IMG/VR virus record: IMGVR_UViG_3300032038_000024
Location: 37,689-101,688 of that record
DNA length: 64,000 nucleotides
Strand: one strand, 5' to 3'
Origin: a virus
Taxonomy: Duplodnaviria; Heunggongvirae; Uroviricota; Caudoviricetes
The position numbers and the translations under genes were made by a program. Under the pieces are notes generated by a model. The model ran no database searches and was not told the DNA's origin. It saw only the letters and a program-made list of their open reading frames with translations. Position 1 is the first letter of the stretch. Each line of letters starts with the position of its first letter. Shown here one piece after another: positions 10,901-37,689 of this stretch.

Positions 10901-13900
10901 TTAGTCTGAAATATTTGCATTCATTTGACCAGTTCTCCAGATGTGAAGTTCTTGTACCATCTTACCGCAACCCATACCTGGTTCAATGTGAGTTGTAATA
11001 ACAGCCATTTCGTTATCAATAATATCAGGTGTATTATTAGATTCGTCCATGATATTCTTATAAGCTTGAATACCACCATTAGCTGCAATTATTGAACAGA
11101 TTTGGTTAGCTCTGTCAAGGATAGCATTACGTGTACGTTGGTTATTGAACTCCCATTGATAAGCTTGAAGAACCTTTTCAATTTCATCTTGTAAGTAAAT
11201 AACAAGTTCACGAACATTAACCTTAGAAAGTGCAGAAACAGGAGTTTGTTTTGCAGTTTGGTTAGCGTTAATGAATGTACCGAAGTTTGGACGGTATACC
11301 ATTACGTTTACACCAAATGGTTCAATAATTTGTAATTCATCCATTGAATATTTGTAGTCAGGACCAACAAGACCAGAAGCAGTAATTGCACCATAGTTAG
11401 GACCTGCAACAATGTAATATGGTTGACGTGAAATATACTTATTAACGAATAAGTTAGATACAAGACCTGCAGCAGGAACTATTGTATCAAGATATCCATC
11501 AGTAAACTTAAGAGGTGTGTAGAATGCAATGAATGAAGCACCATCATTTTCTGTTGGTAAGCTAAACATCATTGAAGCTGATTTCTTCTTATTGAAACCT
11601 TTAACAACATATTCTACATTAAATACACCCTTAGAGTCTGTGAATGATGTGTAAGGACACTTAATAAAGTTCTTAACTGATGGGAAGTTAGCAATACAGA
11701 ATGCAGATTGCTTTTCTTTACATAAGTATGAAAGAACGTTCTTAAGATTAGATACTGGGAATGATTCGAATGTATCAATTACATAACGATAATCAATTTC
11801 TGACTTGTTAAGTAATGCAGTACGAAGTCCCTTATAATCAGTAATTGTAGAAAGAATGAATTCTTGCCACTTTACTTTTGGATACATACCTGTTCCAAGT
11901 GGACGGTCGTTCTTATATGTATAACCTTCAAGATATTGTGGAATCATTGTACCAATTTCTTGGTTAAGAGCAGCATCAACACGAACTAATGTACGGTTAA
12001 TAGTTGCGCCTGTTTCTGGGTCAAGAATTTCATATAACCAAGGTTCTGCAGAAATAAGAATGTAGTGGAATTTGAAATCACCAGCGTGGTGTAAAATAAC
12101 ATCACCATTTTCATCCTTTTCACCGTTCATATCTTCTTCACCTTCTTCGTAGTAAACAGTACCAAATTCTTGAACATTTACATTATCAATGTATCCGTTT
12201 TCATCATCTTCTTCACCATTTTCATTTTCATCAACAGCACCGTCTTGAGCAAGAATACAGTCACCCTTTTGAAGAATGTTAAGTAATGAAGTATCATATT
12301 GAGCTGTACCGATAAGAGCAGCTTGTTTTACACCCTTAATAATTTCAGCATCTTCAACATATTCCCAGTTATCGTCACAGAAATCAATGAATGAAACTGA
12401 AGAACCATAAACAGCATCAGCACCAACTGCAGTTGTATTAACATACTTAATTCTTGTAAGTACTTCAACTTCTTTTAATGCAGGCTTAATGTTTTCATCA
12501 ATATCAGTATATTCTGTTCCGTCAGCTGATTTGTGTTCAAGACGAGAAAGAGCAGTAATAACCTTTTGAGGACCTTCAAGAGGATTTGATGGATCCATAA
12601 ATGCATCTCCTGCTGGCCAGTATGTACCGATACCCTTCTTTGGTTTTCCTTCTTCATCAAATACAACACCAAGTTTACGAGCAGCTTCACGAACTTTCCA
12701 TTGATTTTGATTTGTATTGAAAGTCATTGTAACAGTTTGGTCAGAACCAACTTGTGCTAATTCAATTTGACCAGCTGTACCTGCTTCAACTTCAATATCT
12801 TCTCTAATTGTTTTAACATAAAGTGTACCTGCAATACGAGTCTTGCCAACATAAACGTCTTGTAATGGAGTTTCTGTTTCAGGATCCCATACGTTAGTAT
12901 AGAATGATGTTACATCAGCAATAACAGGAGCACTAACGTTACCTAATACTGATGTTGTTGCAGTACCATCATAAATCTTATCAACACTTAATGTCTTATT
13001 AGCTTTAAGAGGATTCTTTGGTGATGGAATTCTAATACGACCAGAAAGGTCAAGGTTTGCAGCATTTTCTTCTTCAAGTAAATCCTTGTTGAAAGATAAC
13101 ATCATGTTGTGAGTATCAATATCACTATTGAATACAACATCAAGACATGCATATGCACCTTGCTTATTCTTGAAGTAAGGAATGATTGCACCAATATAGT
13201 GTCCAAGAGCACCAGCAGTTTCATCTTTATATAATGCATCAAGTGTATCAACAGATTCACCGAAAGCATTAATTACTTTATCACGAAGTTTAAGTATTTG
13301 ATTACCGTCTTCGTCAAGTTCGTTTGTTACAATGAAGTAGTTTTTCAATGTATTAGAAGCAAGAACTTGCTTTGCTTCGAATTTACCTTTGAATACATAA
13401 ATTTCTGCAAAGAAGTCAGAAATTAAGTTATTCTTGTAAGGTTCCATGTACTCAGGCATTTCTTCATCTGAATACCAGTCATTAACTGTAATATTGTACC
13501 CAGAAACCTTTGTACCTGATGCTTTACGAATAAAATATGTACAAGAAGTTGCTTTAACGTTAGTTGCTGATATATTGATGTATTGGTCCATCAAAGAACC
13601 TTCAACTGAACGCAAGTCATTCAACTTTTCTGCATCAAGAGTCCAGAAACGAGTTGTATCGTAAATGTCTTCAACATTAAGTGTTACAGTGTCAATTGGA
13701 GTAAACTTTGGATTAAAGTCTGTGCTGATAGTAGCACCTTGAACTGTTTCACCGTCAAACTTTTTAAGATTAAGACATAAGATTGGACTTACTTGTAACA
13801 TTTGTAAAGCTAAACGATGGAAATAAATACCACGTTTTTCAAGTCTTTTAGATATATCACCGAAGATAGATCTGAACTCGTATGGATCTTTTACAAGCAC

Positions 13901-14044
13901 AGGTACATTGAAAGGACCTTTCTCAGAGTAACCTACAACTAATCTGAGCATTTGTGTATCTTGATTTAAGATAGCTGAGTGGTCAAAAACTACACGGTAA
14001 ATACCCGCAGCTTTAAACTGCTGCAAATGTACTGGAATTGCCAT
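10901..14044 (-). CDS. contractile tail sheath protein (large, gp18-like by position)
   Basis: 1047-aa protein with its own late-type promoter, directly upstream of the tube gene. No residue-level check was possible. Confidence 0.5.
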   Translation of the reverse strand: MAIPVHLQQFKAAGIYRVVFDHSAILNQDTQMLRLVVGYSEKGPFNVPVLVKDPYEFRSIFGDISKRLEKRGIYFHRLALQMLQVSPILCLNLKKFDGETVQGATISTDFNPKFTPIDTVTLNVEDIYDTTRFWTLDAEKLNDLRSVEGSLMDQYINISATNVKATSCTYFIRKASGTKVSGYNITVNDWYSDEEMPEYMEPYKNNLISDFFAEIYVFKGKFEAKQVLASNTLKNYFIVTNELDEDGNQILKLRDKVINAFGESVDTLDALYKDETAGALGHYIGAIIPYFKNKQGAYACLDVVFNSDIDTHNMMLSFNKDLLEEENAANLDLSGRIRIPSPKNPLKANKTLSVDKIYDGTATTSVLGNVSAPVIADVTSFYTNVWDPETETPLQDVYVGKTRIAGTLYVKTIREDIEVEAGTAGQIELAQVGSDQTVTMTFNTNQNQWKVREAARKLGVVFDEEGKPKKGIGTYWPAGDAFMDPSNPLEGPQKVITALSRLEHKSADGTEYTDIDENIKPALKEVEVLTRIKYVNTTAVGADAVYGSSVSFIDFCDDNWEYVEDAEIIKGVKQAALIGTAQYDTSLLNILQKGDCILAQDGAVDENENGEEDDENGYIDNVNVQEFGTVYYEEGEEDMNGEKDENGDVILHHAGDFKFHYILISAEPWLYEILDPETGATINRTLVRVDAALNQEIGTMIPQYLEGYTYKNDRPLGTGMYPKVKWQEFILSTITDYKGLRTALLNKSEIDYRYVIDTFESFPVSNLKNVLSYLCKEKQSAFCIANFPSVKNFIKCPYTSFTDSKGVFNVEYVVKGFNKKKSASMMFSLPTENDGASFIAFYTPLKFTDGYLDTIVPAAGLVSNLFVNKYISRQPYYIVAGPNYGAITASGLVGPDYKYSMDELQIIEPFGVNVMVYRPNFGTFINANQTAKQTPVSALSKVNVRELVIYLQDEIEKVLQAYQWEFNNQRTRNAILDRANQICSIIAANGGIQAYKNIMDESNNTPDIIDNEMAVITTHIEPGMGCGKMVQELHIWRTGQMNANISD

Positions 14045-14202: not shown

Positions 14203-14236
14203 ACAAAAAAGGAACAGTTCTCGCGAACTGTTCCAA
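14203..14236 (-). terminator. rho-independent terminator after the major capsid gene
   Basis: GGAACAGTTC-TCGC-GAACTGTTCC, a 10-bp stem with a U-run in − sense. A second weaker hairpin lies at 14154-14174. Confidence 0.7.
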
Positions 14237-14296: not shown

Positions 14297-16066
14297 TTAG
14301 ATAATTCCAAATGCTGAGCCAACTGCAATTGTAAGATATTGAAGTTCTGGATAGAAACCAGCTTCTGCAATTGTATAACGGCTGTTAACCAACATCTTAG
14401 GAGCCATTGTACCTTCAGCAGTAATAGAAACTGTGTCAGCAAGAATGTATGGCATGAAGATAACACCTGGTGAGTTACCGTCACCTTTACGACCGATACA
14501 GATACGTGTGTCGTTCCAGTCCATATATGGGTCAACATAAATTTGAAGACCTGCAACTGTACCTGCGTGGTATAAGTTTTGGTTGTTAGCTTGAGACATT
14601 GTGTTAAGCATTGGAGCTACAACATAACCAGAAACGTCTTGTAAAGCAGTAGCAACTTGACCGTTTGTTACAACCCATGTTGGACGTCCACGACGACCTA
14701 CTAATTGGATTAAGTTAGCAGCAGCAAGTAACTTAGACATAATACGACGTTGTCTTGTTGCAAGATTTTCAGCAGAAGTATTAACTTCAGCGTTCTTTAC
14801 ATTACCCCAAGTTGCCTTGTGATCGTGTCCATAAATATCTGTGAAGTGTGGAACACCTGGGAATGCTTGTGCAAATGGAATATCAGCACCACCATTACCC
14901 ATGTAAAGGTTAAGATCTACACCTTGACGAGCTTTTTGTTGAACAGCGTTAGTAACACCAAGTGCAAATACTCTTTCAAGAATACGTTGGTTGATGTGTT
15001 GTGTAATTTCGTTTTGAAGAGCTTCCATAACCTTAGATACAGCATCAACACCGTATAATGGAAGATCTTGTAATTGCTGACGAGTTACAGTACCTGTTAC
15101 TTCATATGAACCCATTTGGATCCACTTGCTGAATAAACGAAGACCAATAACATTACCTGTACCAGTTTCGTTTTGAGCACGTGTCATAGGATTCTTACCA
15201 CCATCGAAGAAGTTTGCGAAACCATCAACAAGATCTACAGAAGTTTGTACGAAGTCAGCAACAACTTCTTGTGCAGCTTTACCTTCAGCAGCTTCTTCAA
15301 GAGCAATTGTATAAGTTCCAATCTTTACAGAATCAGCAGCAGCAAATTCTTCGCGAATTGACTTGTTAGCAGCAGAGCATTCTACAACTTTAACAAGTGG
15401 GCAAGCGTCCATACGACCAAGCATAATAAACTTACCTTTGAAACCACCAACTTCTACAGCAGCATCAGCAGCAATTGTACCGTCTTCAATCTTTGTACGA
15501 ATACCAGCAATTTGTTCAAGTGTAAGACCTTTAATCTTAATGTAGATAGGCTTGTTTTCATTACCTTCACCCTTACCATCAAATGATGTTTCGTTTACAC
15601 GACCAAGTTTACCACCAGCATATGGGAAGTCCATATATGTTAACATAGCCCAAGGACCCTTAGAAGGAATAACTGGAACAAGTTCAAGACCAATAGTTAA
15701 CAATGCAATGTTAAGAGCCATTGGAAGAGTAGATACTGGAATATCACCAGAACCTGGAGTTTGACCCCAGAATGAACCTGTTGGGTTAGCAGCATTGTAT
15801 GGAGCTGTGCTCATTGGGTCTAATTGACTTGGAGCTGTAGGATTACCCATACCAAGTGTGTTCATTGGAGTTGTATAGATAGGACCTACGCCTGGGTGTT
15901 GAGCTGAAACAGCAACATTACCACCGTTAATACCAATTTGAGATTCATGAATTTCATGAATAGCAGCATATTGAGAAACCCAGTTAAGTTTTTCCTGGTC
16001 ATTAACGTTGAAGTTCTCCTTCAACATTTTTTCCCATGTAACTGCGCCATTTTGTTCATTAAACAT
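14297..16066 (-). CDS. major capsid protein, T4 gp23-like
   Basis: RRGRPTWVVTNGQVATALQDVSGYVVAP versus gp23 RGEGNFIIASRNVVNVLASVDTGISYAAQ; YHAGTVAGLQIYVDPYMDWNDTRICIGRKG versus VFAGVLGGKYRVYIDQYAKQDYFTVGYKG. ATG at 16066; the track start 16081 is TTG. Confidence 0.8.
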   Translation of the reverse strand: MFNEQNGAVTWEKMLKENFNVNDQEKLNWVSQYAAIHEIHESQIGINGGNVAVSAQHPGVGPIYTTPMNTLGMGNPTAPSQLDPMSTAPYNAANPTGSFWGQTPGSGDIPVSTLPMALNIALLTIGLELVPVIPSKGPWAMLTYMDFPYAGGKLGRVNETSFDGKGEGNENKPIYIKIKGLTLEQIAGIRTKIEDGTIAADAAVEVGGFKGKFIMLGRMDACPLVKVVECSAANKSIREEFAAADSVKIGTYTIALEEAAEGKAAQEVVADFVQTSVDLVDGFANFFDGGKNPMTRAQNETGTGNVIGLRLFSKWIQMGSYEVTGTVTRQQLQDLPLYGVDAVSKVMEALQNEITQHINQRILERVFALGVTNAVQQKARQGVDLNLYMGNGGADIPFAQAFPGVPHFTDIYGHDHKATWGNVKNAEVNTSAENLATRQRRIMSKLLAAANLIQLVGRRGRPTWVVTNGQVATALQDVSGYVVAPMLNTMSQANNQNLYHAGTVAGLQIYVDPYMDWNDTRICIGRKGDGNSPGVIFMPYILADTVSITAEGTMAPKMLVNSRYTIAEAGFYPELQYLTIAVGSAFGII

Positions 16067-16109
16067 ATTATTTATAATCAAAATTTATTTGTTATTTCTC
16101 TGTTTGAGA

Positions 16110-16171: not shown

Positions 16172-17860
16172 TTATGCATTTAAGCCACGAAGTCTCTTCA
16201 TGTTAGCAATAATGCTGTTTTGATAATTTTCAACAGGATTCTTTGATTCTACAACTGGCTTTGTTTCTTCAGCTTTCTTGCCAAAATCAACATTAGCCCA
16301 GAATGATTCAAGTACACCTTCTTTTGTGAAATCATACATCTTTGAACTTCTAATGATGTTCTGTTGTGCAGCTTCATTAAGTAATTCCCATGATGGACGA
16401 TATTCAGCTGGCATGTTTTCTACAACATAAACTCCTTTGTACTTGTTTTCAGCATTATGTTCTTCAACAATCTTTTGAACATCTGTATTGCCTTCAGCAG
16501 CTATAGATTCAAGTAAACCATCAATTTCATCAAGGCGACCAGCCTTTTGAGATTCCATAAATGCAGAAACATTTTCGTTTACTTTTTGTTCAATAATTGC
16601 TGATTGTTCTGGAGTATATTCTTCCATTAACCAGTTCTCCATAGTAGGAGCAAATTCTTCAGTAATCCAACCTTGAATTTCTGGAGCAAATTCTTCAGTT
16701 ACCCAGTTTTGTAATTCAGGTGAATATTCTTCAACAATCCAGTTTTGTACTTCTGGAGCAAATTCTTCAACTACCCAATTTTGTACTTCAGGTGCAAATT
16801 CCTCTACAACCCAATCTTGTACTAATGGAGCAAATTCTTCAGTTACCCAAGACTTCATTTGAGAAGTAAATTCATCATTAATCCAAGTCTTAACAGCTTC
16901 CTGAATTTCTTCTGATGAATTACCATTCATCTTTTCAGTAATAACTGTATTTAAACCTTCATTGATTTTGTTTTGGAAATCAGGTGCAAATTCTTCAGTA
17001 ATCCACTTTTGAATACCTTCATAATTTGTAGGCTTAATAGACTTTACTTCGTTTAAAGATTCTTGAGCTACATGAAGCTCAGCTTCGAGAGATGTTACTT
17101 TCTCAGTAAGCTTATCAATAGCTTCTTTAAGTTCTTTCATATCGATGTCTTTATTGTCATTATTTTTGTTATCGTCTTTCTTAGGATCATCCTTAGGATC
17201 TCCCTTAGGTTCTTCCTCAGGTTTGTCATCATTCTTAGGTTCGTCTTTTGGCTTGTCGTCGTTCTTATCTTTATCATCGATAAGATCATCACCTTCAACA
17301 ATAACCCAAGTTTCATTACTATCTTCAAGACCTTCATTCAAGCATTCAAGAGTTTGATTAGTCTTTAATGTAAGCTTAGCTTGACTGAAACCAGGAGTAC
17401 CTACCAAGTCATATGTCTGTATAGTTGATAAAGTTACACGACCTTCATTAGTAATTGTACCTGCACCACGTGACGAAATGAAAAGTGGAAGACCGCCTTC
17501 AACGATAGCTTTAGCAATTTGACCTTTTGGAGTATTTAAAAGAACAATAGAACCTGTAATTGTACCATCTTCATTCATCTGAATATCTTCAATTTTGTGA
17601 GAAACATTCTCCAAATTAATATTCATTGAATTAGGATGTTCCAATTCTCCAGGACAACCTGATTCTTTTATTTTCTTTTGTAAAGATTCAACCATCTGTG
17701 CATAATTGTCTTTATCATACACACGATTATTTTGATTCTTTATTCCACAAACTCCAAATACACCTTGCAAACGCATTAAACCATCGCCTTTAGCTTCTGA
17801 CACTTGAAGATTTGAAACGCTTCCCAAAGTCTCATAAACCAAGCAACGTTTATCTGTCAT
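16172..17860 (-). CDS. prohead core protease (gp21/S77-like) fused to a repeat-containing scaffold-like C-terminal region
   Basis: GELEHP...ISSRGAGTITNEG versus gp21 GELNHP...VSSRGLGSLTDTNEG. Then a KD/PE-rich linker, a coiled coil and 8 tandem 12-aa repeats. Confidence 0.7.
   Translation of the reverse strand: MTDKRCLVYETLGSVSNLQVSEAKGDGLMRLQGVFGVCGIKNQNNRVYDKDNYAQMVESLQKKIKESGCPGELEHPNSMNINLENVSHKIEDIQMNEDGTITGSIVLLNTPKGQIAKAIVEGGLPLFISSRGAGTITNEGRVTLSTIQTYDLVGTPGFSQAKLTLKTNQTLECLNEGLEDSNETWVIVEGDDLIDDKDKNDDKPKDEPKNDDKPEEEPKGDPKDDPKKDDNKNNDNKDIDMKELKEAIDKLTEKVTSLEAELHVAQESLNEVKSIKPTNYEGIQKWITEEFAPDFQNKINEGLNTVITEKMNGNSSEEIQEAVKTWINDEFTSQMKSWVTEEFAPLVQDWVVEEFAPEVQNWVVEEFAPEVQNWIVEEYSPELQNWVTEEFAPEIQGWITEEFAPTMENWLMEEYTPEQSAIIEQKVNENVSAFMESQKAGRLDEIDGLLESIAAEGNTDVQKIVEEHNAENKYKGVYVVENMPAEYRPSWELLNEAAQQNIIRSSKMYDFTKEGVLESFWANVDFGKKAEETKPVVESKNPVENYQNSIIANMKRLRGLNA
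16611..16898. repeat. 8 tandem 36-nt in-frame coding repeats (protein W-V/I-V/T-EEFAPE-V/I-QN)
   Basis: Read directly: GGAGCAAATTCTTCAGTTACCCAGTTTTGTAATTCA-type units with period 36. Confidence 0.85.
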
Positions 17861-17997
17861 ATGCTACAATATATGTATATTTTTGTTATATGTTGCAAAT
17901 CAAATAAAAATAATATAACTAAATCACATTTATGATTTTTTAAGTCATATATTTTAATAAAAATAAATATTTTAAGACCTAATGTATTAAAAATAAA

Positions 17998-18022
17998 AGA
18001 GAGCAACATTAGTTGCCCTCTT
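17998..18022 (-). terminator. rho-independent terminator
   Basis: AGAGAGCAAC-ATTA-GTTGCCCTCT with one mismatch, then a U-run in − sense, directly after the stop at 18031. Confidence 0.55.
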
Positions 18023-18030
18023 AAATATAA

Positions 18031-19092
18031 TTATAAATTTGATTCATCTATATCACCATCCATATATGTTACAGTATCGGGATTTCTCCACCATGATGGA
18101 TCTATACCATCCTCAGAACATATTGTCCAATATTCAGAAATACGTCTTATTTGTTTAGGTGACAATACACGAGCAGCCATTTGTGTATATGTTTCAAATT
18201 GCCAATCAGGTACCCAGAATGTCATACCTTGCCAACTCCATTCCTGCCAACCATCCACACCGCCTGGCATTAAAGGAATTTTACTATCAACAAGCATATT
18301 TTTAATAGTTCCTAAACCTCTATTTGACTGCCAACTTGTAGCGTATGGGAAACCATCAGTTGTTCCAACAGTAAGAATATTTGCAATATCAAATCCTGGC
18401 TTAATATAATTATTCTTAAAATAGAAATGTTTAATAACTCTATCATCACCAGTTCCAATTCCATTACCGTCAAATGGATGATTATATGTTTCACCACTAT
18501 TTTCAAACCAGCATTTTTCTAAAGTATATGGAGTTGAACCATCAATATTAATAGCTGCAGAAAATGTTGGATGCCAATAACCTTTATTACCTTTAGGTTG
18601 TCGAACATAAATCTCTCTTAAATTATATTGTTCAAGTTCAGTAACAGATAAACCAGAAGGAATAACTGTGATAGGACATAATCCATGTTTCATCGCATAT
18701 ATATTTGTAAATGGTCTTAAATCTATTACTTCAATATTTTTATTGCCTAATAATGGACATTGACTACTTACAAATGATCCACTAATATCTATACGTTGGT
18801 TAACATCTACTACACCTATTGTATCACCAAAATAATTACTTTTACCAATATTTTCAGTAAATTCAGGATCGTCCCATTCATAATATGTACCATTAATGTT
18901 TTCAATTCTTAATTCATATCGTCTTGTTAAAAATTCAGTTTGATGTGGAAATGAATATAATGGTCTAATATAACCTTTTAAACGACCAGTTATATAACTA
19001 TCTTTTGTTAATTTATATAATTTTGGAATACATTCATTACTTACAGTTTCTGAACCTGTTGTATTTTGTGAAATTGTTATTTTATTTAACAT
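18031..19092 (-). CDS. hypothetical virion/tail-associated protein
   Basis: 353-aa protein, Trp-rich at the C-terminus, heading the fibre-gene block. Confidence 0.45.
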   Translation of the reverse strand: MLNKITISQNTTGSETVSNECIPKLYKLTKDSYITGRLKGYIRPLYSFPHQTEFLTRRYELRIENINGTYYEWDDPEFTENIGKSNYFGDTIGVVDVNQRIDISGSFVSSQCPLLGNKNIEVIDLRPFTNIYAMKHGLCPITVIPSGLSVTELEQYNLREIYVRQPKGNKGYWHPTFSAAINIDGSTPYTLEKCWFENSGETYNHPFDGNGIGTGDDRVIKHFYFKNNYIKPGFDIANILTVGTTDGFPYATSWQSNRGLGTIKNMLVDSKIPLMPGGVDGWQEWSWQGMTFWVPDWQFETYTQMAARVLSPKQIRRISEYWTICSEDGIDPSWWRNPDTVTYMDGDIDESNL

Positions 19093-19115: not shown

Positions 19116-22100
19116 TTAAATTTCAGAAAGTTTAATAACTTTATCAAATAAACTAAACATACCAGTTTTTGTATTATCAGTTGTTGAAATTGTTAATTCT
19201 GATATATCTGAAGAAGATGTAATTTGTACATATTGAGCATCCAATTTAGGTTGATTAACAATTGAAATTGCTGATGGTGTACCATAGAATAATTGTTGTA
19301 TTTCAGTACCTTCATTGAATTTAACATTCATATATGTATTTGTTAAATTAACATATTCAATTACATTTGTATTTGCTCCTGTTGAACTTAAATCAATAGT
19401 TTTATATTTTTCATCTAATCTATTGTTTTCAGGATCTTCTTCAAAACCAAGTTTATTACAACCAGATAAATTAAGTTTCTTTAATTTTTTCATTTCACCA
19501 AATACAATATTTGGATAATCTACTTGTTCTTGGTTATAAGTACGTTTAGTAAATGTTGTTAATCCAATACAATTAGATAAATCAATTTCTTCAACATTTG
19601 GTAAATATTGGAATATACTTGTAAATTGTATATCATCTCTCATAACATCTCCTGATGATCCATATTTTGTACCATTTGCTAAAGTTGTTGTAATACCTGT
19701 ATGAGTTTTTGCCTTAAACATTGTAAGTGATAACAAATCAGATTTATAGAAACCTGCAGTACTTATTGTATTTGTTATTTGTGAACCAGTACTATCTAAA
19801 TATGATTCACATAATGCATCCCACATAGCTGAACTGTTATTTGTATAAATTGGATATGCGTCATCCATTAATACAATATGTTTACTTATTTCTTTCCAGT
19901 CACCAGATTTGAAAGTAAATGTACATGTTAATACATAATCAATCATACCTGTTTTAGGTATTGTACCAGTAACTTTAAGAATAATTGGATATTCATGTGA
20001 TGCATTTTGTGCATAAGAGAAATATGAATCTTGTCTTATCTTAATAGTTGTATCATTATTTGGATTTTCCTTAAATGTTGTATATGATGATGAAAGAATT
20101 ACTTGTCCTGCTGGATTTTTCAATGTCCATGTAACACCATTAGGTTTTGTATTACCTTCAGCTTCAGCAAATGGATATTCCAAATCTAAATAAAATTCTA
20201 TAGCAGGCAATGTATCACTATGGAATACGAAACCACCATTATATTGTCTTAATTCATTACTTGCAGTTAAGATATCCCATTTTTCTGGGTATGATACTGC
20301 TAATATATGTATTAATATATATGATGATTCACCATTTAATGTACATAATAACAATACATCAAAATCTTTACCACCACTACTTTCAGCAACATTAATATAT
20401 AATTTACCAGTTTCATCTTGCATGAAGTTAACTGTTCTGAATGAACCTTTATTAATACTTTGTGAACCTGTTTGAGGATCTATAAAATACCATTGTGCAT
20501 CTACTTCAGTTTCTTGAAGTGTAAATCTTGTTGCAGATACAGTTACTTTTTTACCTTCAGCAATAAATATACCACTAGTTTTTAATTCATTATTTAATTT
20601 ATTTAATGCTGCTCTATCGTTTTGCTGTGTATAATAAGAACGTAATCTATCTCTTGCTGCATTATAAACTTGTTGTGTTGATGGATCTTTGATTGTTATA
20701 TCTCCAGGATCACCACCTTCACCAAAGTTAATTTGAACATAATCAAGAGGTTGGTCTACAACTAAGTTAGATTCTCTTGCAACTTTATTAAATGTATTTT
20801 CACCAAACCAGTGTTTAATATTAGTTAATTGTTCAGCAGTTAATTTCTTTTGCTTTGATAATTGCACATAACCAGTAATTGGTTTAGGCTTATTATCTAA
20901 ACCATTATTATTCTTATTATTAAATTCTGCAATTAATGATAATTGTTCATATGTTAATAATGAAGCACAATTGTCTTGTGTCCATTCAACATATTCCATT
21001 TCTAATGTACGTTGATTTAATTCTTGTCTTAATAATATTTCAATTGCTTTATCTGTACTATCATCACCTGTTAAATTATTTTGATTTTTTATAAGAATAA
21101 TTTTATCCTTAAGAGTAGTATTTGAATGTTCAACAATATAACCTCTAATACTATCAATCCAATTTAATACTAATAATTGTGCGTTTTCAGATGATGCAGT
21201 TTTACCAGTCATCTTAATACTATTCAATGAATAAGGAATATTCAATGACTGTCTTGAATTATTTTGGTGCTTGGTATATGTTACAGAGTTATCTGCTGCA
21301 CTAATTGCTGCATCCCAGAAAATAATATCTGACCAAGTTGAATCATGTAAAATTAATGTTTTAAAACCTTTTCCATCATCACCGTCAGCCATATCTGAAC
21401 GTGTATTGTATGCAGGTAATTCAAGCATTTCAAATTGGTTACCATCTTCAGCAGATTCAAATGATGTAATACCTGTTCCTTTTGCATAGAAATTTTGTAA
21501 TTCAGTCAAATTATTTGTGTGAATAATTGACATATCACTTAATTGTGTTAAACCAACAATATTAATTTCTTTTACAATACCTAAAACATTTTTACCTTCA
21601 AGTGCACCAAAATCCAATTGAAGTGTATTACCATTAACATAACCAGTTAAAACGTTAGTACCTGGTGTTCTCATTGTTGGAACACCCATATTTAATACCT
21701 TAATACATGGACCTAATACATTATCGTATGCACCTGTAAATGTAGCTGTGTCCATACCTTTTGCTAAACAACTTATATCTAATTCTTCAATAAATGTTGC
21801 ACCATAAATATGGAATGGAACCTTTGTAGCAAGGTTTAATGATGTAATATCAAATCTTGCTGGGTTTTCATGATCACAGTGTGTTGCACCAGATCCAATC
21901 TTTTGATAGTTTTGTTCAATTGTTAAATATGTTTCAGCATTTGGTCTGATAATAATAATTTCAGGTTGATTTGCATTACCTGCAGGCTTAACGGCACCAA
22001 CATAAATTGTATGACGTCTAAAGTCACCACAATTCCATTTGGCATCATAATAGTTCATTGATGTACTTAACCACCAGTGTCTATGTGTTGTTCTTGCACC

Positions 22101-25100
22101 TTGTAACCAGTTCAACCATGTATTTGAACCACCACCTGATAATACATATTTAAAATAACCTGAATCATTATATATGCTTTCGCACCATTTACCGGCATAT
22201 TCTTCATCAAATATCTTAGTAATATTTTCATATGTTAAACCTGCAGTATATAATGCTTCTGCAACTGCAGGAACGATTGTATCAGCCCAATATGGCCATG
22301 CTTCAAGTGCATCCCATAACCAGTTAGATGTTTTATATCCACCCATACCATCACCTTGTCTACCTGATATAGCATATTCATTTCTATCAGTTGCTTTTGT
22401 TGTATTACGATCTATAGGAGGATTAAATGCAATACCACCAGTATTTTTATTACCTAAAGCAATATCCATATCCCATGGTTCATAATGCCAGTGAATACCG
22501 TCATATGTTTTTAATTGAGCATTACGTTCAAGTGAGTCAACAAGACCGAATCTTAATACATAAATATAATATGCAGCTAATTTATATAAATCTAAGTGTT
22601 GTGCTGCTGTTTTTTCAAATTCTTCTTGATTTTCATATGTACTTGTAATCCATGCAAACCAGTCAATAAATGGTTGAATTGTTTCTCTATATTTTGAACC
22701 TTCATTGAATTTATCCATTCCTTCTTCTTCTTTAATATCATCAGGATCTGGATATATTAATTCAAATTCTTGTTCCCAGTTAAATACTCTTTCATTTGTT
22801 ATTCTACCTTGTTCATCTTTAAGGAATACTGTTGCATCAAAAGGATTACCTTCCTTATCATTATATTGCATATATGATGTAAATGGAGTATTAACATCCA
22901 ATACTTCAATACGTAATACGTTTGCGTTGTTCCATACTCTATTTGATTTATGGTCTTGACCTTTTTGACCTTCAATTAATGCATTACTACCATTTTTTGT
23001 ATTAATCTTTTTTAATACAAATGGATCTTTTTCATCATAAGGATCATTTGGATAATCTGAAGCTTCTCTATTTGCTGGTAATGGGAAATTATATATTGAT
23101 CTTTCACCAAATACGAAGTCAGCTTTTTTATCTTCCATTAATACATATGAACCTAAGAATGTTTCTTTATTATCAGCAGATGTATCTTTATAGAATACAA
23201 CAACTGGAATAGAATCAGGTGCAATTTGTATATCATAAGGGAAAGCTGTAGGACGTTCATTTAATCCAGTTTCATTATTTACAAATGTATCCTTCCATAA
23301 TTTATTATCATATGTACCTCTCCAGTTAACACCAATTGAATTGTTGTTATTTGGGTCTTTGTCTTCATTTAAATTTTTATCTACATTAGATATTACTTCG
23401 TTTGTTGTAAATAATTGTGGTGCAGTTCTTAATCTAAAATCAACTTTACCATTAACATTAAATTCGGCATTATACCAAGTTTGTTGTATTAATCTTTGTA
23501 AACCACCATTATGTACACCAGAAGAGTCTGCATAGTTTGCTTGAAGAACAAATTTATTTGAAGGTATTGATGCCTTTCTTATAACTGTTCTTCCATCAGC
23601 AGATATTTCCTCATCACGTAATCTATATCTATTCTTATTAAATTTACATGCTTCTTGTCCAACACAATGTAATTCTGGAGTAACATTTTTACGTGTTGAT
23701 TTATTGAACCAGAATTTCATTGAAGGTATAGGATAGTTCAATGTTGATTGACCATGTTTTCTAATCAATGCATTATAACATATAAAATCTTTTGAAGAAT
23801 CATAAGGACATGTTCTTTGAATAGTAACATCAGTTTCTGATTGTTTCTTTTTACTATCTTTATCCAATAATCTTGATAGATCACCGGTAATCAAAATAGT
23901 ATCTAATAATCCACAACATTTATCGTAACTCATTTTGTTACTTACATAAATATCGTTTCTTGTAATAATATCTTGTTTATTTTCAGCATCAAAAACCCAG
24001 TTATTATATGCTTCTTTATATGTTAATGGAAAATCATATACTCTTATTGTATATACTTTAACACCTGAATTAGATCCACCAATCTTAATAGGACCTGTTG
24101 TTTCAAATGAGAATGAACTTGATGATATACCTCTTTCAAGAATACCATTATTTACAATAAATATTAATTCTGATTTTTCATTATTTGATCTTGGATTAAT
24201 AATGAAATGCAATTTAAGACGTTCATTTGTCTTAAAGTTTGTCTTAATACGTTCTTCACCACCAGTATCATATAATATTGCAGAGTTTGGTGTAATATCA
24301 ATTCTTGCTTGATAATCAGAACCAATTCTAATTAAAACATCTTGGTCATTATTAATCTTTTCGCTTTCAAATTCAATTTCAATTGTTTTACCTCTTGTAT
24401 AATCAGCTAATGGTGAACAATTGATTATTGCATATGAATCAGGTCCATAAGTTCTTAATGCACCATTTTGAGCATCCCAACCGTTAATGTTATCCCATTT
24501 AAATCCAGTAAATTCTGTTGAATATCTACCATATGTCCATGTATTTACACCTGAACCAATATTTTCTCTACCGTAAGCAGTTAATTTTAATTCATATGAT
24601 GCTGTTTCATATACACTGTTTCCCTTTTCAATTTTCATTGGTATTGAAATAATTTGTTGTCCATCAATTTTCGCAACCAAATAAATTGGCTTTTTGTTTT
24701 GTGTATATAATGAAGGCATAAATGATAATGGATTTTTTGCTTCCTTAAATCTACTTATACCAACACCAGTTGTCAATACAACTGTATCTCCAAGAGTTTG
24801 TTGTAATTCCCAACTAACATTAATATCACCTTGGTTATTATTATCACTATAATAACCCCATTCTAATTTATATGGATCATATTGTACTGCACTTAAAGTA
24901 GGTAAACCTAAAATTGGTAAATCTGCAACTTCTGATGCATTAATAGATGCTTTAAAGTTAACAAAATGGTTTGCAATTGATGGAGTATCTTCTCCATTAA
25001 AATCTTTTCTTACTTCAAATGTATAGAATAATATATTACTTGTAAAAACAGTATTATTTTGTGATATACGACAATAAATTTGTAATGTATGATATATTGG

Positions 25101-26006
25101 GGTTTCTGATGTACTTTGTGTTAATAAATCTTTAAGACGTACACCTTGAACAGATGTCATACCAAGAAATTGTCGTTTCATAACAACAAACTGGTTTTCA
25201 ACACTTAATTGTGTTGAATCATAGTGATCTGTTTCGTCATTTAAAGTCCATTTACCATCTAATACATAATAAATAGTAAATCCTGAATTAGGTCTTGTAT
25301 TTAAGTTAACTACAACATTATTAACATTAAATTCAGCTTGACTAATTTTATCTGATGTGTATTCAAAATCTGCATCAATATTAAAATTAATCATAGTAAT
25401 TGATACTGAAGGACTAGCTTCAGCTTCATAGTTAATTGCACTTAATTTTAATGTTACTGTATTTTCACCTTCATCAAGATACTTATAGAAATCACGAGTA
25501 ATTGTTTTTTCAGATCTACTTATTCTTTCTGTTTGTGTATGAACTTTATTTGTTGCAAGATTTTTAATTTCATATGTAGCTCTAATTTCATCAGAAAGAA
25601 TTGTTTCACCTTGTTTTATTTCCCATGAATATGTAATTGTCGATCCTGTTTGTTTATCGTCACCTTTAATAACATAACGCAAATCAGCATTAACAATTTC
25701 ACATTTTAAATCATATTCTGATTGTTTAGGCAATTCAGCAATTTGTAAGTTTTCCCATCCAGCAAATGGTGCTCTACCTTCTTTACCAGCTTTCCATAAA
25801 TTATATGCAGCTTCACTAGAAAATATTCTATATCTTGTAGTGTCTTTAAAAACATATATAGGCTTACGTAAATGCTCTTGTAAAAGATTTCTTATAGCTA
25901 AACCTGAAGGTTGTTTATTGTTTGTTGCTGACTGACCTGGTATATTTACATCTTCACCATTTATCCAGTTTACAAACTCTGTAATATTATCATTATATAA
26001 GTCCAT
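19116..26006 (-). CDS. giant (2296 aa) tail fibre/adhesin-like protein with a central CotH-like domain
   Basis: Uninterrupted 6.9-kb ORF. LYKLAAYYIYV...YDGIHWHYEPWDMDIALG resembles the CotH WDxDxxFG core; the C-terminus has LRR-like KLKKLNLSGCNKL. Confidence 0.55.
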   Translation of the reverse strand: MDLYNDNITEFVNWINGEDVNIPGQSATNNKQPSGLAIRNLLQEHLRKPIYVFKDTTRYRIFSSEAAYNLWKAGKEGRAPFAGWENLQIAELPKQSEYDLKCEIVNADLRYVIKGDDKQTGSTITYSWEIKQGETILSDEIRATYEIKNLATNKVHTQTERISRSEKTITRDFYKYLDEGENTVTLKLSAINYEAEASPSVSITMINFNIDADFEYTSDKISQAEFNVNNVVVNLNTRPNSGFTIYYVLDGKWTLNDETDHYDSTQLSVENQFVVMKRQFLGMTSVQGVRLKDLLTQSTSETPIYHTLQIYCRISQNNTVFTSNILFYTFEVRKDFNGEDTPSIANHFVNFKASINASEVADLPILGLPTLSAVQYDPYKLEWGYYSDNNNQGDINVSWELQQTLGDTVVLTTGVGISRFKEAKNPLSFMPSLYTQNKKPIYLVAKIDGQQIISIPMKIEKGNSVYETASYELKLTAYGRENIGSGVNTWTYGRYSTEFTGFKWDNINGWDAQNGALRTYGPDSYAIINCSPLADYTRGKTIEIEFESEKINNDQDVLIRIGSDYQARIDITPNSAILYDTGGEERIKTNFKTNERLKLHFIINPRSNNEKSELIFIVNNGILERGISSSSFSFETTGPIKIGGSNSGVKVYTIRVYDFPLTYKEAYNNWVFDAENKQDIITRNDIYVSNKMSYDKCCGLLDTILITGDLSRLLDKDSKKKQSETDVTIQRTCPYDSSKDFICYNALIRKHGQSTLNYPIPSMKFWFNKSTRKNVTPELHCVGQEACKFNKNRYRLRDEEISADGRTVIRKASIPSNKFVLQANYADSSGVHNGGLQRLIQQTWYNAEFNVNGKVDFRLRTAPQLFTTNEVISNVDKNLNEDKDPNNNNSIGVNWRGTYDNKLWKDTFVNNETGLNERPTAFPYDIQIAPDSIPVVVFYKDTSADNKETFLGSYVLMEDKKADFVFGERSIYNFPLPANREASDYPNDPYDEKDPFVLKKINTKNGSNALIEGQKGQDHKSNRVWNNANVLRIEVLDVNTPFTSYMQYNDKEGNPFDATVFLKDEQGRITNERVFNWEQEFELIYPDPDDIKEEEGMDKFNEGSKYRETIQPFIDWFAWITSTYENQEEFEKTAAQHLDLYKLAAYYIYVLRFGLVDSLERNAQLKTYDGIHWHYEPWDMDIALGNKNTGGIAFNPPIDRNTTKATDRNEYAISGRQGDGMGGYKTSNWLWDALEAWPYWADTIVPAVAEALYTAGLTYENITKIFDEEYAGKWCESIYNDSGYFKYVLSGGGSNTWLNWLQGARTTHRHWWLSTSMNYYDAKWNCGDFRRHTIYVGAVKPAGNANQPEIIIIRPNAETYLTIEQNYQKIGSGATHCDHENPARFDITSLNLATKVPFHIYGATFIEELDISCLAKGMDTATFTGAYDNVLGPCIKVLNMGVPTMRTPGTNVLTGYVNGNTLQLDFGALEGKNVLGIVKEINIVGLTQLSDMSIIHTNNLTELQNFYAKGTGITSFESAEDGNQFEMLELPAYNTRSDMADGDDGKGFKTLILHDSTWSDIIFWDAAISAADNSVTYTKHQNNSRQSLNIPYSLNSIKMTGKTASSENAQLLVLNWIDSIRGYIVEHSNTTLKDKIILIKNQNNLTGDDSTDKAIEILLRQELNQRTLEMEYVEWTQDNCASLLTYEQLSLIAEFNNKNNNGLDNKPKPITGYVQLSKQKKLTAEQLTNIKHWFGENTFNKVARESNLVVDQPLDYVQINFGEGGDPGDITIKDPSTQQVYNAARDRLRSYYTQQNDRAALNKLNNELKTSGIFIAEGKKVTVSATRFTLQETEVDAQWYFIDPQTGSQSINKGSFRTVNFMQDETGKLYINVAESSGGKDFDVLLLCTLNGESSYILIHILAVSYPEKWDILTASNELRQYNGGFVFHSDTLPAIEFYLDLEYPFAEAEGNTKPNGVTWTLKNPAGQVILSSSYTTFKENPNNDTTIKIRQDSYFSYAQNASHEYPIILKVTGTIPKTGMIDYVLTCTFTFKSGDWKEISKHIVLMDDAYPIYTNNSSAMWDALCESYLDSTGSQITNTISTAGFYKSDLLSLTMFKAKTHTGITTTLANGTKYGSSGDVMRDDIQFTSIFQYLPNVEEIDLSNCIGLTTFTKRTYNQEQVDYPNIVFGEMKKLKKLNLSGCNKLGFEEDPENNRLDEKYKTIDLSSTGANTNVIEYVNLTNTYMNVKFNEGTEIQQLFYGTPSAISIVNQPKLDAQYVQITSSSDISELTISTTDNTKTGMFSLFDKVIKLSEI

Positions 26007-37182: not shown

Positions 37183-37689
37183 TTAATATCTATTTGTAAC
37201 TATTATTGTGTCTTTATTATTCTTGAATTTTTCTTTTACTTTATCAAGACCTAATTGCATATCATCAATAACTTTTTCAGGTATATGTTCTTTACGACGA
37301 TCTTTACAAATTTCTTTAGGAGTATCAATAATGATTATTTGAACATTAGCATTAGCTTTCTTTAATTTATCATAATAATTTTGTACTCTTCCTGCTTTAA
37401 TATTTGTATTATCAATAACAAAATCTCTTCTATCTTTAATTGCTTTATCAATTCGTTCTAAACAAATTCTTGTAACTTCCTTTTCTTGTTCTGAATTACC
37501 AATTGCTTTATGGTTGTCATCCTTCATTATACCAAGTTCAACTCTAATTGAATCTTGGTTTATAATTTCGATATTCTTTGGAAGTTCTTCTTTAATATAT
37601 GTTGACTTACCTGAACCTGGAAGCCCGCACATAATCCAAACATTAAATGGATTTTGTTTTTCAAATATATAAGCTATTAATGATTTCAT
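37183..37689 (-). CDS. polynucleotide 5'-kinase (T4 Pnk kinase-domain homolog), with the shared N-terminal motif
   Basis: CGLPGSGKST (T4 GCPGSGKST), INQDSIR (INRDDYR), IDNTNIKAGR (SDTNLNPERR). N-terminus MKSLIAYIFE. Confidence 0.6.
   Translation of the reverse strand: MKSLIAYIFEKQNPFNVWIMCGLPGSGKSTYIKEELPKNIEIINQDSIRVELGIMKDDNHKAIGNSEQEKEVTRICLERIDKAIKDRRDFVIDNTNIKAGRVQNYYDKLKKANANVQIIIIDTPKEICKDRRKEHIPEKVIDDMQLGLDKVKEKFKNNKDTIIVTNRY

Follow-up and report, generated by a model that had tools for sequence, protein, structure and literature searches.

Whether a phage can carry its prohead protease and its prohead scaffold in a single polypeptide is the question raised by a 562-aa gene with an ATG start (16172..17860) in the virus record IMGVR_UViG_3300032038_000024 of IMG/VR. 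We analyzed positions 37,689 to 101,688 of this record, a stretch of 64,000 nt that we refer to as the window and to which all coordinates apply; the gene and all features of its product described here lie on the minus strand. The gene is defined by the list of open reading frames (ORFs) together with at least 120 full-length homologs. An initial annotation made from the sequence alone had described its product as a gp21-type protease continuing into a repeat-bearing region with a gp22-like function. Our analyses indicate that the gene probably encodes a bifunctional head-assembly polyprotein composed of an S77 protease, a disordered charged tether, and a helical scaffold-type region.

The N-terminal part of the protein (aa 1–165, 17366..17860, with a folded core at aa 29–165) is a serine protease of the T4 gp21 type (MEROPS S77, assemblin fold). 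The Pfam model Peptidase_S77 (PF03420), which has a curated cut-off of 27 bits, matches aa 29–152 with 44.8 bits (e value 1.3e-11), and BLASTP aligns aa 1–185 with T4 gp21 at 27% identity across 139 aa (e value 8e-10). In this alignment GELNHP of T4 pairs with GELEHP, which equates His75 (codon at 17636..17638) with T4 His85, and VSSRGLGSLTDTNEG of T4 pairs with ISSRGAGTI--TNEG, which equates Ser129 (17474..17476) with T4 Ser140. Both residues, as well as Ser130 and Asp151 (17408..17410), are invariant in 56 of 56 sequences. A His/Ser/Asp triad has been reported for T4 gp21 and giant-phage homologs including SPN3US gp245 (PMC5694885), and Asp151, matched to this triad by its conservation rather than by direct alignment with the T4 Asp, is probably the third catalytic residue. 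A profile built from the 56 family sequences matched Protein Data Bank (PDB) entry 5JBL (e value 2.7e-7), whose chain has Ala at both positions aligned to His75 and Ser129; when the 19 additional residues of that chain are taken into account, the two positions correspond to residues 85 and 140. The single protein sequence used as a phmmer query against the PDB gave no meaningful match, and among these sequence searches 5JBL was reached by the family profile only; weak matches to Pumilio-repeat entries (e values 0.008–0.7) were rejected as noise caused by the repeats. AlphaFold2 modeled aa 29–165 with a predicted local distance difference test (pLDDT) score of 86–91, and a Foldseek search with this model again returned 5JBL (e value 2.9e-8, template modeling score 0.64–0.71, root-mean-square deviation 2.5–3.0 Å), with herpesvirus assemblins ranking next. 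The motif-level resemblance to T4 gp21 noted initially is thus confirmed by BLASTP, Pfam, the predicted fold, and the invariant catalytic residues.

The fusion of this protease with a long helical C-terminal region is genuine and is kept in all relatives of this phage, in which the gene immediately precedes a gp23-type capsid gene. The identical 562-aa protein is present in two independent assemblies (ENA ERZ27256903 and JGI 3300032037), and among 5.8 billion proteins searched we found at least 120 full-length homologs of 530–589 aa with 62–100% identity on contigs of up to 467 kb; homologs from Lak phages, which are not readable as single ORFs under code 11, were left out. In all eight of the related loci L011–L018, the gene is uninterrupted and has a capsid gene 92–123 nt downstream, whereas the upstream neighbor varies; with L004 and L005 included, the polyprotein gene and the capsid gene are adjacent in ten related loci, and no gene separates them. 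A HMMER search with aa 238–562 against 1.84 billion cluster representatives gave only 169 matches, and most of those that are 450–650 aa long carry the protease domain too; the shorter ones look like fragments. BFVD contains many gp21-type proteases of 500–660 aa, and PHROG 207 matches aa 17–471 of our protein (e value 2.3e-44). NCBIfam returned nothing relevant for the full-length protein, a megablast comparison of the surrounding 6 kb with 50,697 phage records returned no match, and tblastn against phage records returned matches to the protease domain only, with no record covering at least 80% of the query.

In the comparison with other phages that had been suggested, protease and C-terminal region are fused in the Tenacibaculum phages pT24 and PTm1 and in phage LR756500; Sphingomonas phage PAU and T4 have separate genes for protease and scaffold. 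An assembly error or frameshift that had joined two genes, the scenario named initially as the one that would overturn the fusion, would explain why the called product of one 2.9-kb contig (L006), which has in-frame stops upstream of an internal Met, is 313 aa long and starts at that Met. The first 100 nt of this contig, however, lie at the contig end and match nothing in any frame, and the fusion recurs in uninterrupted homologs from many samples, including genomic scaffolds of 441–467 kb, as well as in two cultured and completely sequenced phages; together with the two independent assemblies, this leaves an artifact with a negligible probability. The product called from L006 (P0129) at first resembled that of a stand-alone scaffold gene beginning at the internal Met; positions 1–310 (ENA ERZ27293308, contig k141_635251) may reflect a gene that is truly split or a faulty end of the contig.

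Beyond the protease domain, aa 166–240 (17141..17365) form the low-complexity linker noted initially, which is rich in K, D, E, P, and N, contains DDKDKNDDKPKDEPKNDDKPEEEPKGDPKDDPKKDD, and is predicted to be disordered (pLDDT of about 30 over aa 166–239). The linker DNA has periodicities of 12 nt and 30 nt, and linker length and sequence differ even between homologs that are 94–99% identical; the segment at 17175–17267 especially combines periodic DNA with variability among close homologs. Most length differences among the closest relatives come from this charged linker and not from the tandem repeats described below, and it is the linker that constitutes the slippage-prone, hypervariable segment of the gene. 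The AlphaFold2 model passes from disorder to helix exactly at Met241, and the helix at aa 241–272 (17045..17140) has a heptad pattern, read from the sequence, with hydrophobic residues at the a and d positions (M241, L244, I248, L251, V255, L258, and L262) and a conserved LEAxLHVA motif. The coiled coil that the initial annotation had placed after the linker is therefore probable. It is followed by a second predicted helix (aa 280–310), by a single long predicted helix (aa 316–455, 16496..16915, pLDDT 67–82 in a monomer model) that holds the repeat array, by a small helical C-terminal domain (aa 478–523, 16292..16429, pLDDT 80–84) with the pattern MPxxYxPxW..L.E....FW, and by a terminal predicted helix (aa 542–559). 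This C-terminal domain is the best-conserved portion outside the protease: P484 is invariant, and at least 90% of sequences retain F520 and W521. The domain is common to pT24, PTm1, and LR756500 although the repeats of these phages differ. We consider it a candidate capsid-protein-binding domain. As a whole, aa 241–562 are predicted to be elongated, all-helical, and acidic.

This region includes an array of eight tandem 12-residue units at aa 326–421 (16598..16885), in which Trp residues are spaced exactly 12 residues apart; an isolated ninth unit, WITEEFAPDFQN, is located at aa 286–297 (16970..17005). The units follow the pattern W-x-x-E-E-F-A-P or, more generally, W-h-x-E-E-F/Y-x-P. The count of eight and the 36-nt DNA period agree with the initial annotation, and its range of 16611–16898 comprises the same 288 nt but is displaced by 13 nt. 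The tandem DNA repeats had also been described as exact, which they are not: pairwise DNA identity between units is 47–86%, and Tandem Repeats Finder reported periods of 36 (5.7 copies, 76% matches) and 72 (81% matches). The WVVEEFAPEVQN units at aa 350 and aa 362 are identical as peptides, yet their DNA differs at 6 of 36 nt, all of them synonymous. Diverged DNA units and purely synonymous differences between identical peptides indicate that the array is old and that its protein sequence is what has been maintained. The expected copy-number variation exists despite this divergence, and we counted 5–10 tandem units among relatives, always in a 12-residue register. At least 90% of sequences retain W362 and W386. 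Elsewhere among the relatives the W units recur with a period of 12, 16, 20, or 28 residues.

Such an array might act as a molecular ruler in which the number of units sets the capsid radius or the triangulation number. The array is predicted as one continuous helix with a rise of about 1.8 nm per unit, and the number of units changes by whole units only, both of which would suit a ruler. Nevertheless, the number varies from 5 to 9 among close relatives at 82–99% identity, and relatives have unit periods of 12, 16, 20, or 28 residues or a different, Tyr-based repeat, from which it follows that the hydrophobic phase of the helix is not conserved. These differences in period and in copy number argue against a strict geometric ruler, and the genomic scaffolds of 441–467 kb, all of which have eight units, make the data set uninformative. 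We consider a ruler function very improbable.

Two further observations concern the repeats. In an analysis of synonymous variation, based on a codon alignment of nine genes with 66–89% amino-acid identity and an amino-acid-specific expectation, the strongest constraint of the gene falls at 16655–16699 (codons 388–402, units 6–7; observed/expected 0.26–0.37); gene conversion between units, misalignment of nonorthologous units, or an RNA element could account for this dip. Similar units also occur in P0181 (1452 aa, high G+C, rich in Pro, Gly, and Trp), a giant protein in which 12-residue units, among them RPGWLDETIDTT and RPDWLNEEFAPA, occur by the dozen and have the W-L-x-E-E-F-A-P core in common with those of the phage, and P0199 (1043 aa) has many matches to the W motif.

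What speaks for a scaffold role of the C-terminal part is its position and its architecture. T4 arranges these genes in the order 21-22-23, the equivalent slot of PAU is taken by a separate scaffold gene, and here and in the ten related loci the C-terminal part fills the slot of T4 gene 22 between the protease and a gp23-type capsid gene. The region is also as long as or longer than the stand-alone scaffolds T4 gp22 (269 aa) and PAU gp152 (277 aa), and its coiled coil and long rod are followed by a conserved domain of the kind by which scaffolds attach to the capsid protein. Several points weigh against this reading. Homology of the C-terminal part to T4 gp22 was not detectable (hhalign probability 0.2%, BLASTP e value 3.4), and the part has no similarity to the separate PAU scaffold gp152, and no match to an annotated scaffold family in PHROGs, the best hit there (e value 0.003) being labeled "head morphogenesis"; the long helix at aa 316–455 was predicted with moderate confidence for the monomer and has a Pro every 12 residues; and the scaffold function, the cleavage sites, and the second product discussed below are all inferences. 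Without gp22 homology the term scaffold rests on position and architecture, and of the gp22-like function proposed initially it is position and predicted shape that stand, with sequence homology against it. We infer from position and architecture that the C-terminal part is the best scaffold candidate.

The lack of homology to any known scaffold would also be expected if the C-terminal 320–370 residues were only a pro-region or targeting segment, needed to bring the protease into the prohead and discarded afterwards, with the real scaffold or core made of other proteins encoded elsewhere, and several neighboring ORFs (e.g., 18031–19092) have no assigned function. A region used for targeting only would, however, not need to match or exceed the length of stand-alone scaffolds or to occupy the scaffold slot of the genome, and its predicted coiled-coil and repeat features are typical of self-associating rods. 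Moreover, the ten related loci offer no gene between protease and capsid gene that could take the scaffold role, and the upstream neighbor is not conserved. A pure targeting function is therefore unlikely, although it is the strongest of the competing explanations.

T4 gp21 cuts after Glu in L/I-x-E and fragments gp22, and gp21 itself carries LIE-9 near its N terminus and is processed at its C terminus (PMC9026906). We found candidate cleavage motifs in the polyprotein. At the place of T4 LIE-9, V-Y-E at aa 8–10 (17831..17839) is a candidate self-cleavage motif that is conserved as [LIVM]-x-E in 89% of 56 homologs, and just after the protease domain I-V-E at aa 187–189 (17294..17302) is conserved as [LIVM]-x-E in 88% of homologs, with IIE at the equivalent place in pT24. 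The C-terminal domain is flanked by V-E-E (aa 465–467) and V-V-E (aa 536–538, 16247..16255), and the latter candidate is conserved in 71% of homologs. Nearly every repeat unit contains a hydrophobic-x-Glu motif, which is conserved in most units (59–77%). Over aa 241–562 there are 15 [LI]xE motifs compared with 6.3 expected from shuffled sequences (P 0.001) and 29 [LIVM]xE motifs compared with 12.4 expected, whereas the protease domain has no hydrophobic-x-Glu enrichment relative to shuffles. Sequence comparison also revealed two L/I-x-E motifs near the N terminus of the capsid protein, at aa 15–17 (16016–16024) and aa 36–38 (15953–15961); these are shared with PTm1, pT24, and PAU, with I-x-E motifs invariant across the four phages, and are probably propeptide cleavage sites for the protease. 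Judged by sequence, the motif pattern of the polyprotein fits a scheme in which a protease of about 180 residues is set free and the rod is broken down to short peptides.

The heads of giant phages are known to contain numerous internal proteins that have undergone processing (PMC9026906), and the hydrophobic-x-Glu motif at aa 187–189 could merely release a stable C-terminal product, so that the helical repeat region, once freed from the protease, might persist in the mature head, either internally ("inner body"-like) or as an ejected protein. The two-fold enrichment of cleavage-type motifs across aa 241–562, which leaves almost no repeat without one, is more in line with degradation than with retention, and the region is not similar to internal or ejection proteins already known. 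Retention in the head is thus improbable, only slightly less so than a ruler function.

If the bifunctional polyprotein is the correct reading, the helical part would serve as the scaffold or core of the prohead, oligomerizing via the coiled coil and the repeat helix. The conserved C-terminal domain would contact the capsid protein and in this way bring the protease into the prohead. Once the shell is assembled, the protease would free itself at the flanking hydrophobic-x-Glu motifs (aa 8–10 and aa 187–189), and the released enzyme would degrade the scaffold part to small peptides, which would then exit from the shell, as gp21 treats gp22 in T4. A second, more abundant product that starts at Met241 might supply an excess of scaffold over protease like that seen with herpesvirus UL26/UL26.5 and lambda C/Nu3.

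The Met241 ATG (17138..17140) is a candidate internal start for a scaffold-only product of 322 aa, to which conservation, helix onset, and synonymous constraint point. A Met is present at the boundary between linker and helix in 59 of 59 distinct close variants, among which the adjoining residues vary. Of 36 representatives that share less than 50% identity with one another, 23 place a Met where the low-complexity block ends, compared with 32% by chance (P 7e-5); this test used a wider window chosen after seeing the data, so that its P value is indicative only, and the narrower first window gave 14 of 40 (P 0.002). In the analysis of synonymous variation, codons 229–252 have an observed/expected ratio of 0.41–0.58, similar to the 0.51 of codons 1–12 at the true start, and both values fall in the 1st–6th percentile of all windows. 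The sequence AAC AAA AAT AAT before the ATG is almost invariant in the DNA. There are also precedents, because an internal start is annotated even within gene 21 of T4 (PMC9026906) and herpesviruses make a scaffold-only product from inside the protease–scaffold gene at a roughly ten-fold higher level (10.1101/2024.05.03.592320).

On the other side, Met241 also suits the first a position of the heptad pattern, and the pT24/PTm1 subgroup, in which the charged segment follows the repeats, has no Met at the boundary. The synonymous test used only nine related sequences, and an even stronger dip lies inside the repeats. With their A/T-rich composition free of Shine-Dalgarno motifs, the 25 nt preceding Met241 look like true leaders, but among internal ATGs the leader score reaches only the 89th percentile and that of Met311 is equal, so that we rejected leader composition as a pointer to Met241 because it does not discriminate. 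Reading the sequence by eye, we saw no Bacteroidota-type TAnnTTTG motif upstream of Met241. Weighing these points, we regard the chances for and against a second, more abundant scaffold-only product starting at Met241 as about even. A fuller model, in which a T4-type protease gene uses the UL26/UL26.5 strategy of herpesviruses, with both the fusion and a scaffold-only product from Met241, and in which the W units form a self-destruct cassette with one hydrophobic-x-Glu per unit that would allow the rod to be cut into peptides of about 1.4 kDa able to leave the shell, is more tentative, and we put it forward as somewhat less likely to be right than wrong.

Comparison with known systems places the polyprotein within a recognizable family. 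The Tenacibaculum phage proteins, annotated as "prohead core scaffold" in pT24 (BAV39266.1, 527 aa) and as "prohead core scaffolding protein and protease" in PTm1 (BBI90692.1, 564 aa), are homologous over their whole length, belong to PHROG 207, and have a gp21-type protease that is 49–52% identical to ours. They likewise have W-based helical repeats and the C-terminal MP..W..L.E...FW domain, and their genes are directly upstream of the capsid gene. In the C-terminal region BLASTP found pT24 (e value 5e-12) and PTm1 (e value 5e-10), with an identity that is local and only 21–34%. The repeats themselves differ, in that pT24 has only about 2–3 W units compared with eight tandem units plus one here and PTm1 has units of roughly 16 residues without the E-E-F-A-P core, and the charged low-complexity segment lies after the repeats in both phages but before them here. 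Phage LR756500 (462 kb) encodes a 632-aa fusion with a Tyr-based repeat and the same C-terminal domain directly after the portal gene. The PAU protease gp151 (246 aa) is 41.5% identical to ours, and the head-gene order is similar, with the portal gene upstream and the capsid gene downstream; unlike here, gp151 and the scaffold gp152 are encoded by separate adjacent genes.

With T4 our system shares the protease family, its fold and the catalytic His and Ser, the order of protease, scaffold slot, and gp23-type capsid gene, an N-terminal hydrophobic-x-Glu motif, and a scaffold part rich in L/I-x-E that parallels the multiply cut substrate gp22. It differs from T4 in that one 562-aa polypeptide takes the place of two gene products (212 aa and 269 aa), and T4 has neither the 12-residue W repeats nor the long charged linker. 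The resemblance to herpesvirus UL26/UL26.5 comprises the protease fold, the order protease, linker, scaffold, and conserved C-terminal end, and possibly an in-frame scaffold-only product from an internal start, which here is a candidate. There is no sequence homology to the herpesvirus proteins outside the protease fold, and the herpesvirus short form has its own transcript, whereas an internal start here would use the same bacterial mRNA. The herpesvirus protease cleaves at Ala-Ser, unlike the cleavage after Glu that we assume here. In lambda C/Nu3, Mu I/Z, and P2 gpO, protease and scaffold also share one frame, with or without an internal scaffold start; the lambda and P2 proteases belong to families other than S77, and these systems have unrelated sequences and no W-repeat array. 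Protease–scaffold fusions are thus of a kind already known, and GenBank contains homologous fusions from cultured phages. In the literature we found no paper discussing, for this clade, either the fusion or the W repeats. The new elements are the 12-residue W-unit array, whose copy number varies in nature, the conserved domain at the C-terminal end, and the evidence pointing to an internal start.

The polyprotein gene is part of a conserved head module. The gp23-type major capsid gene (Pfam Gp23, e value 1e-27) starts 105 nt downstream of it and occupies 14297..16066 on the same strand, encoding 589 aa from the ATG at 16066 that gene callers chose; the ORF list gives a TTG at 16081 instead. 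A terminator-like hairpin of 11 pairs followed by a T run is located upstream of the 562-aa gene (17997..18022) and another of 10 pairs followed by a T run lies after the capsid gene (14211..14234), both on the minus strand, and no terminator-like site was found on this strand between the two genes. The hairpins bracket both head genes, suggesting that these apparently form a single two-gene transcription unit. A scan for sigma-70 promoters was at chance level, with 25 found compared with 24 expected. The capsid gene is followed by a tail sheath gene (10901–14044) whose product, at 1047 aa, is unusually long and has its sheath-family match confined to the C-terminal 300 residues. The region upstream of the conserved head module is variable. 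It includes a 353-aa ORF (18031–19092) with no family match and, at 19116–26006, a gene for a giant protein of 2296 aa that is 2177–2904 aa long in some relatives and is replaced by leucine-rich-repeat proteins in two others (L013 and L014).

The source of the window is a huge uncultured myovirus-type phage of about 440–470 kb, the related genomic scaffolds of 441–467 kb marking it as a megaphage. G+C content within the window is 22–38% with an average of about 29%, and among the start regions of 39 ORFs only one has a Shine-Dalgarno-like motif, the leaders being 87% A+T. The near absence of Shine-Dalgarno motifs and the fact that the closest cultured relatives grow on Tenacibaculum point to a Bacteroidota-type host.

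Scaffolds of giant phages are poorly known, and this polyprotein family provides a concrete candidate that is physically tied to its protease; the database label "prohead protease" alone overlooks two thirds of the protein. The family is present in genomic scaffolds of 440–470 kb and also in two cultured Tenacibaculum phages, in which its role is testable, and the natural copy variation of the 12-residue unit offers a simple experimental handle on scaffold length, cleavage, and capsid size. If the nested start at Met241 is true, the capsid-maturation modules of phages and herpesviruses would share not only fold and domain order but also an expression strategy, and the case for a common ancestry of this module would be strengthened.

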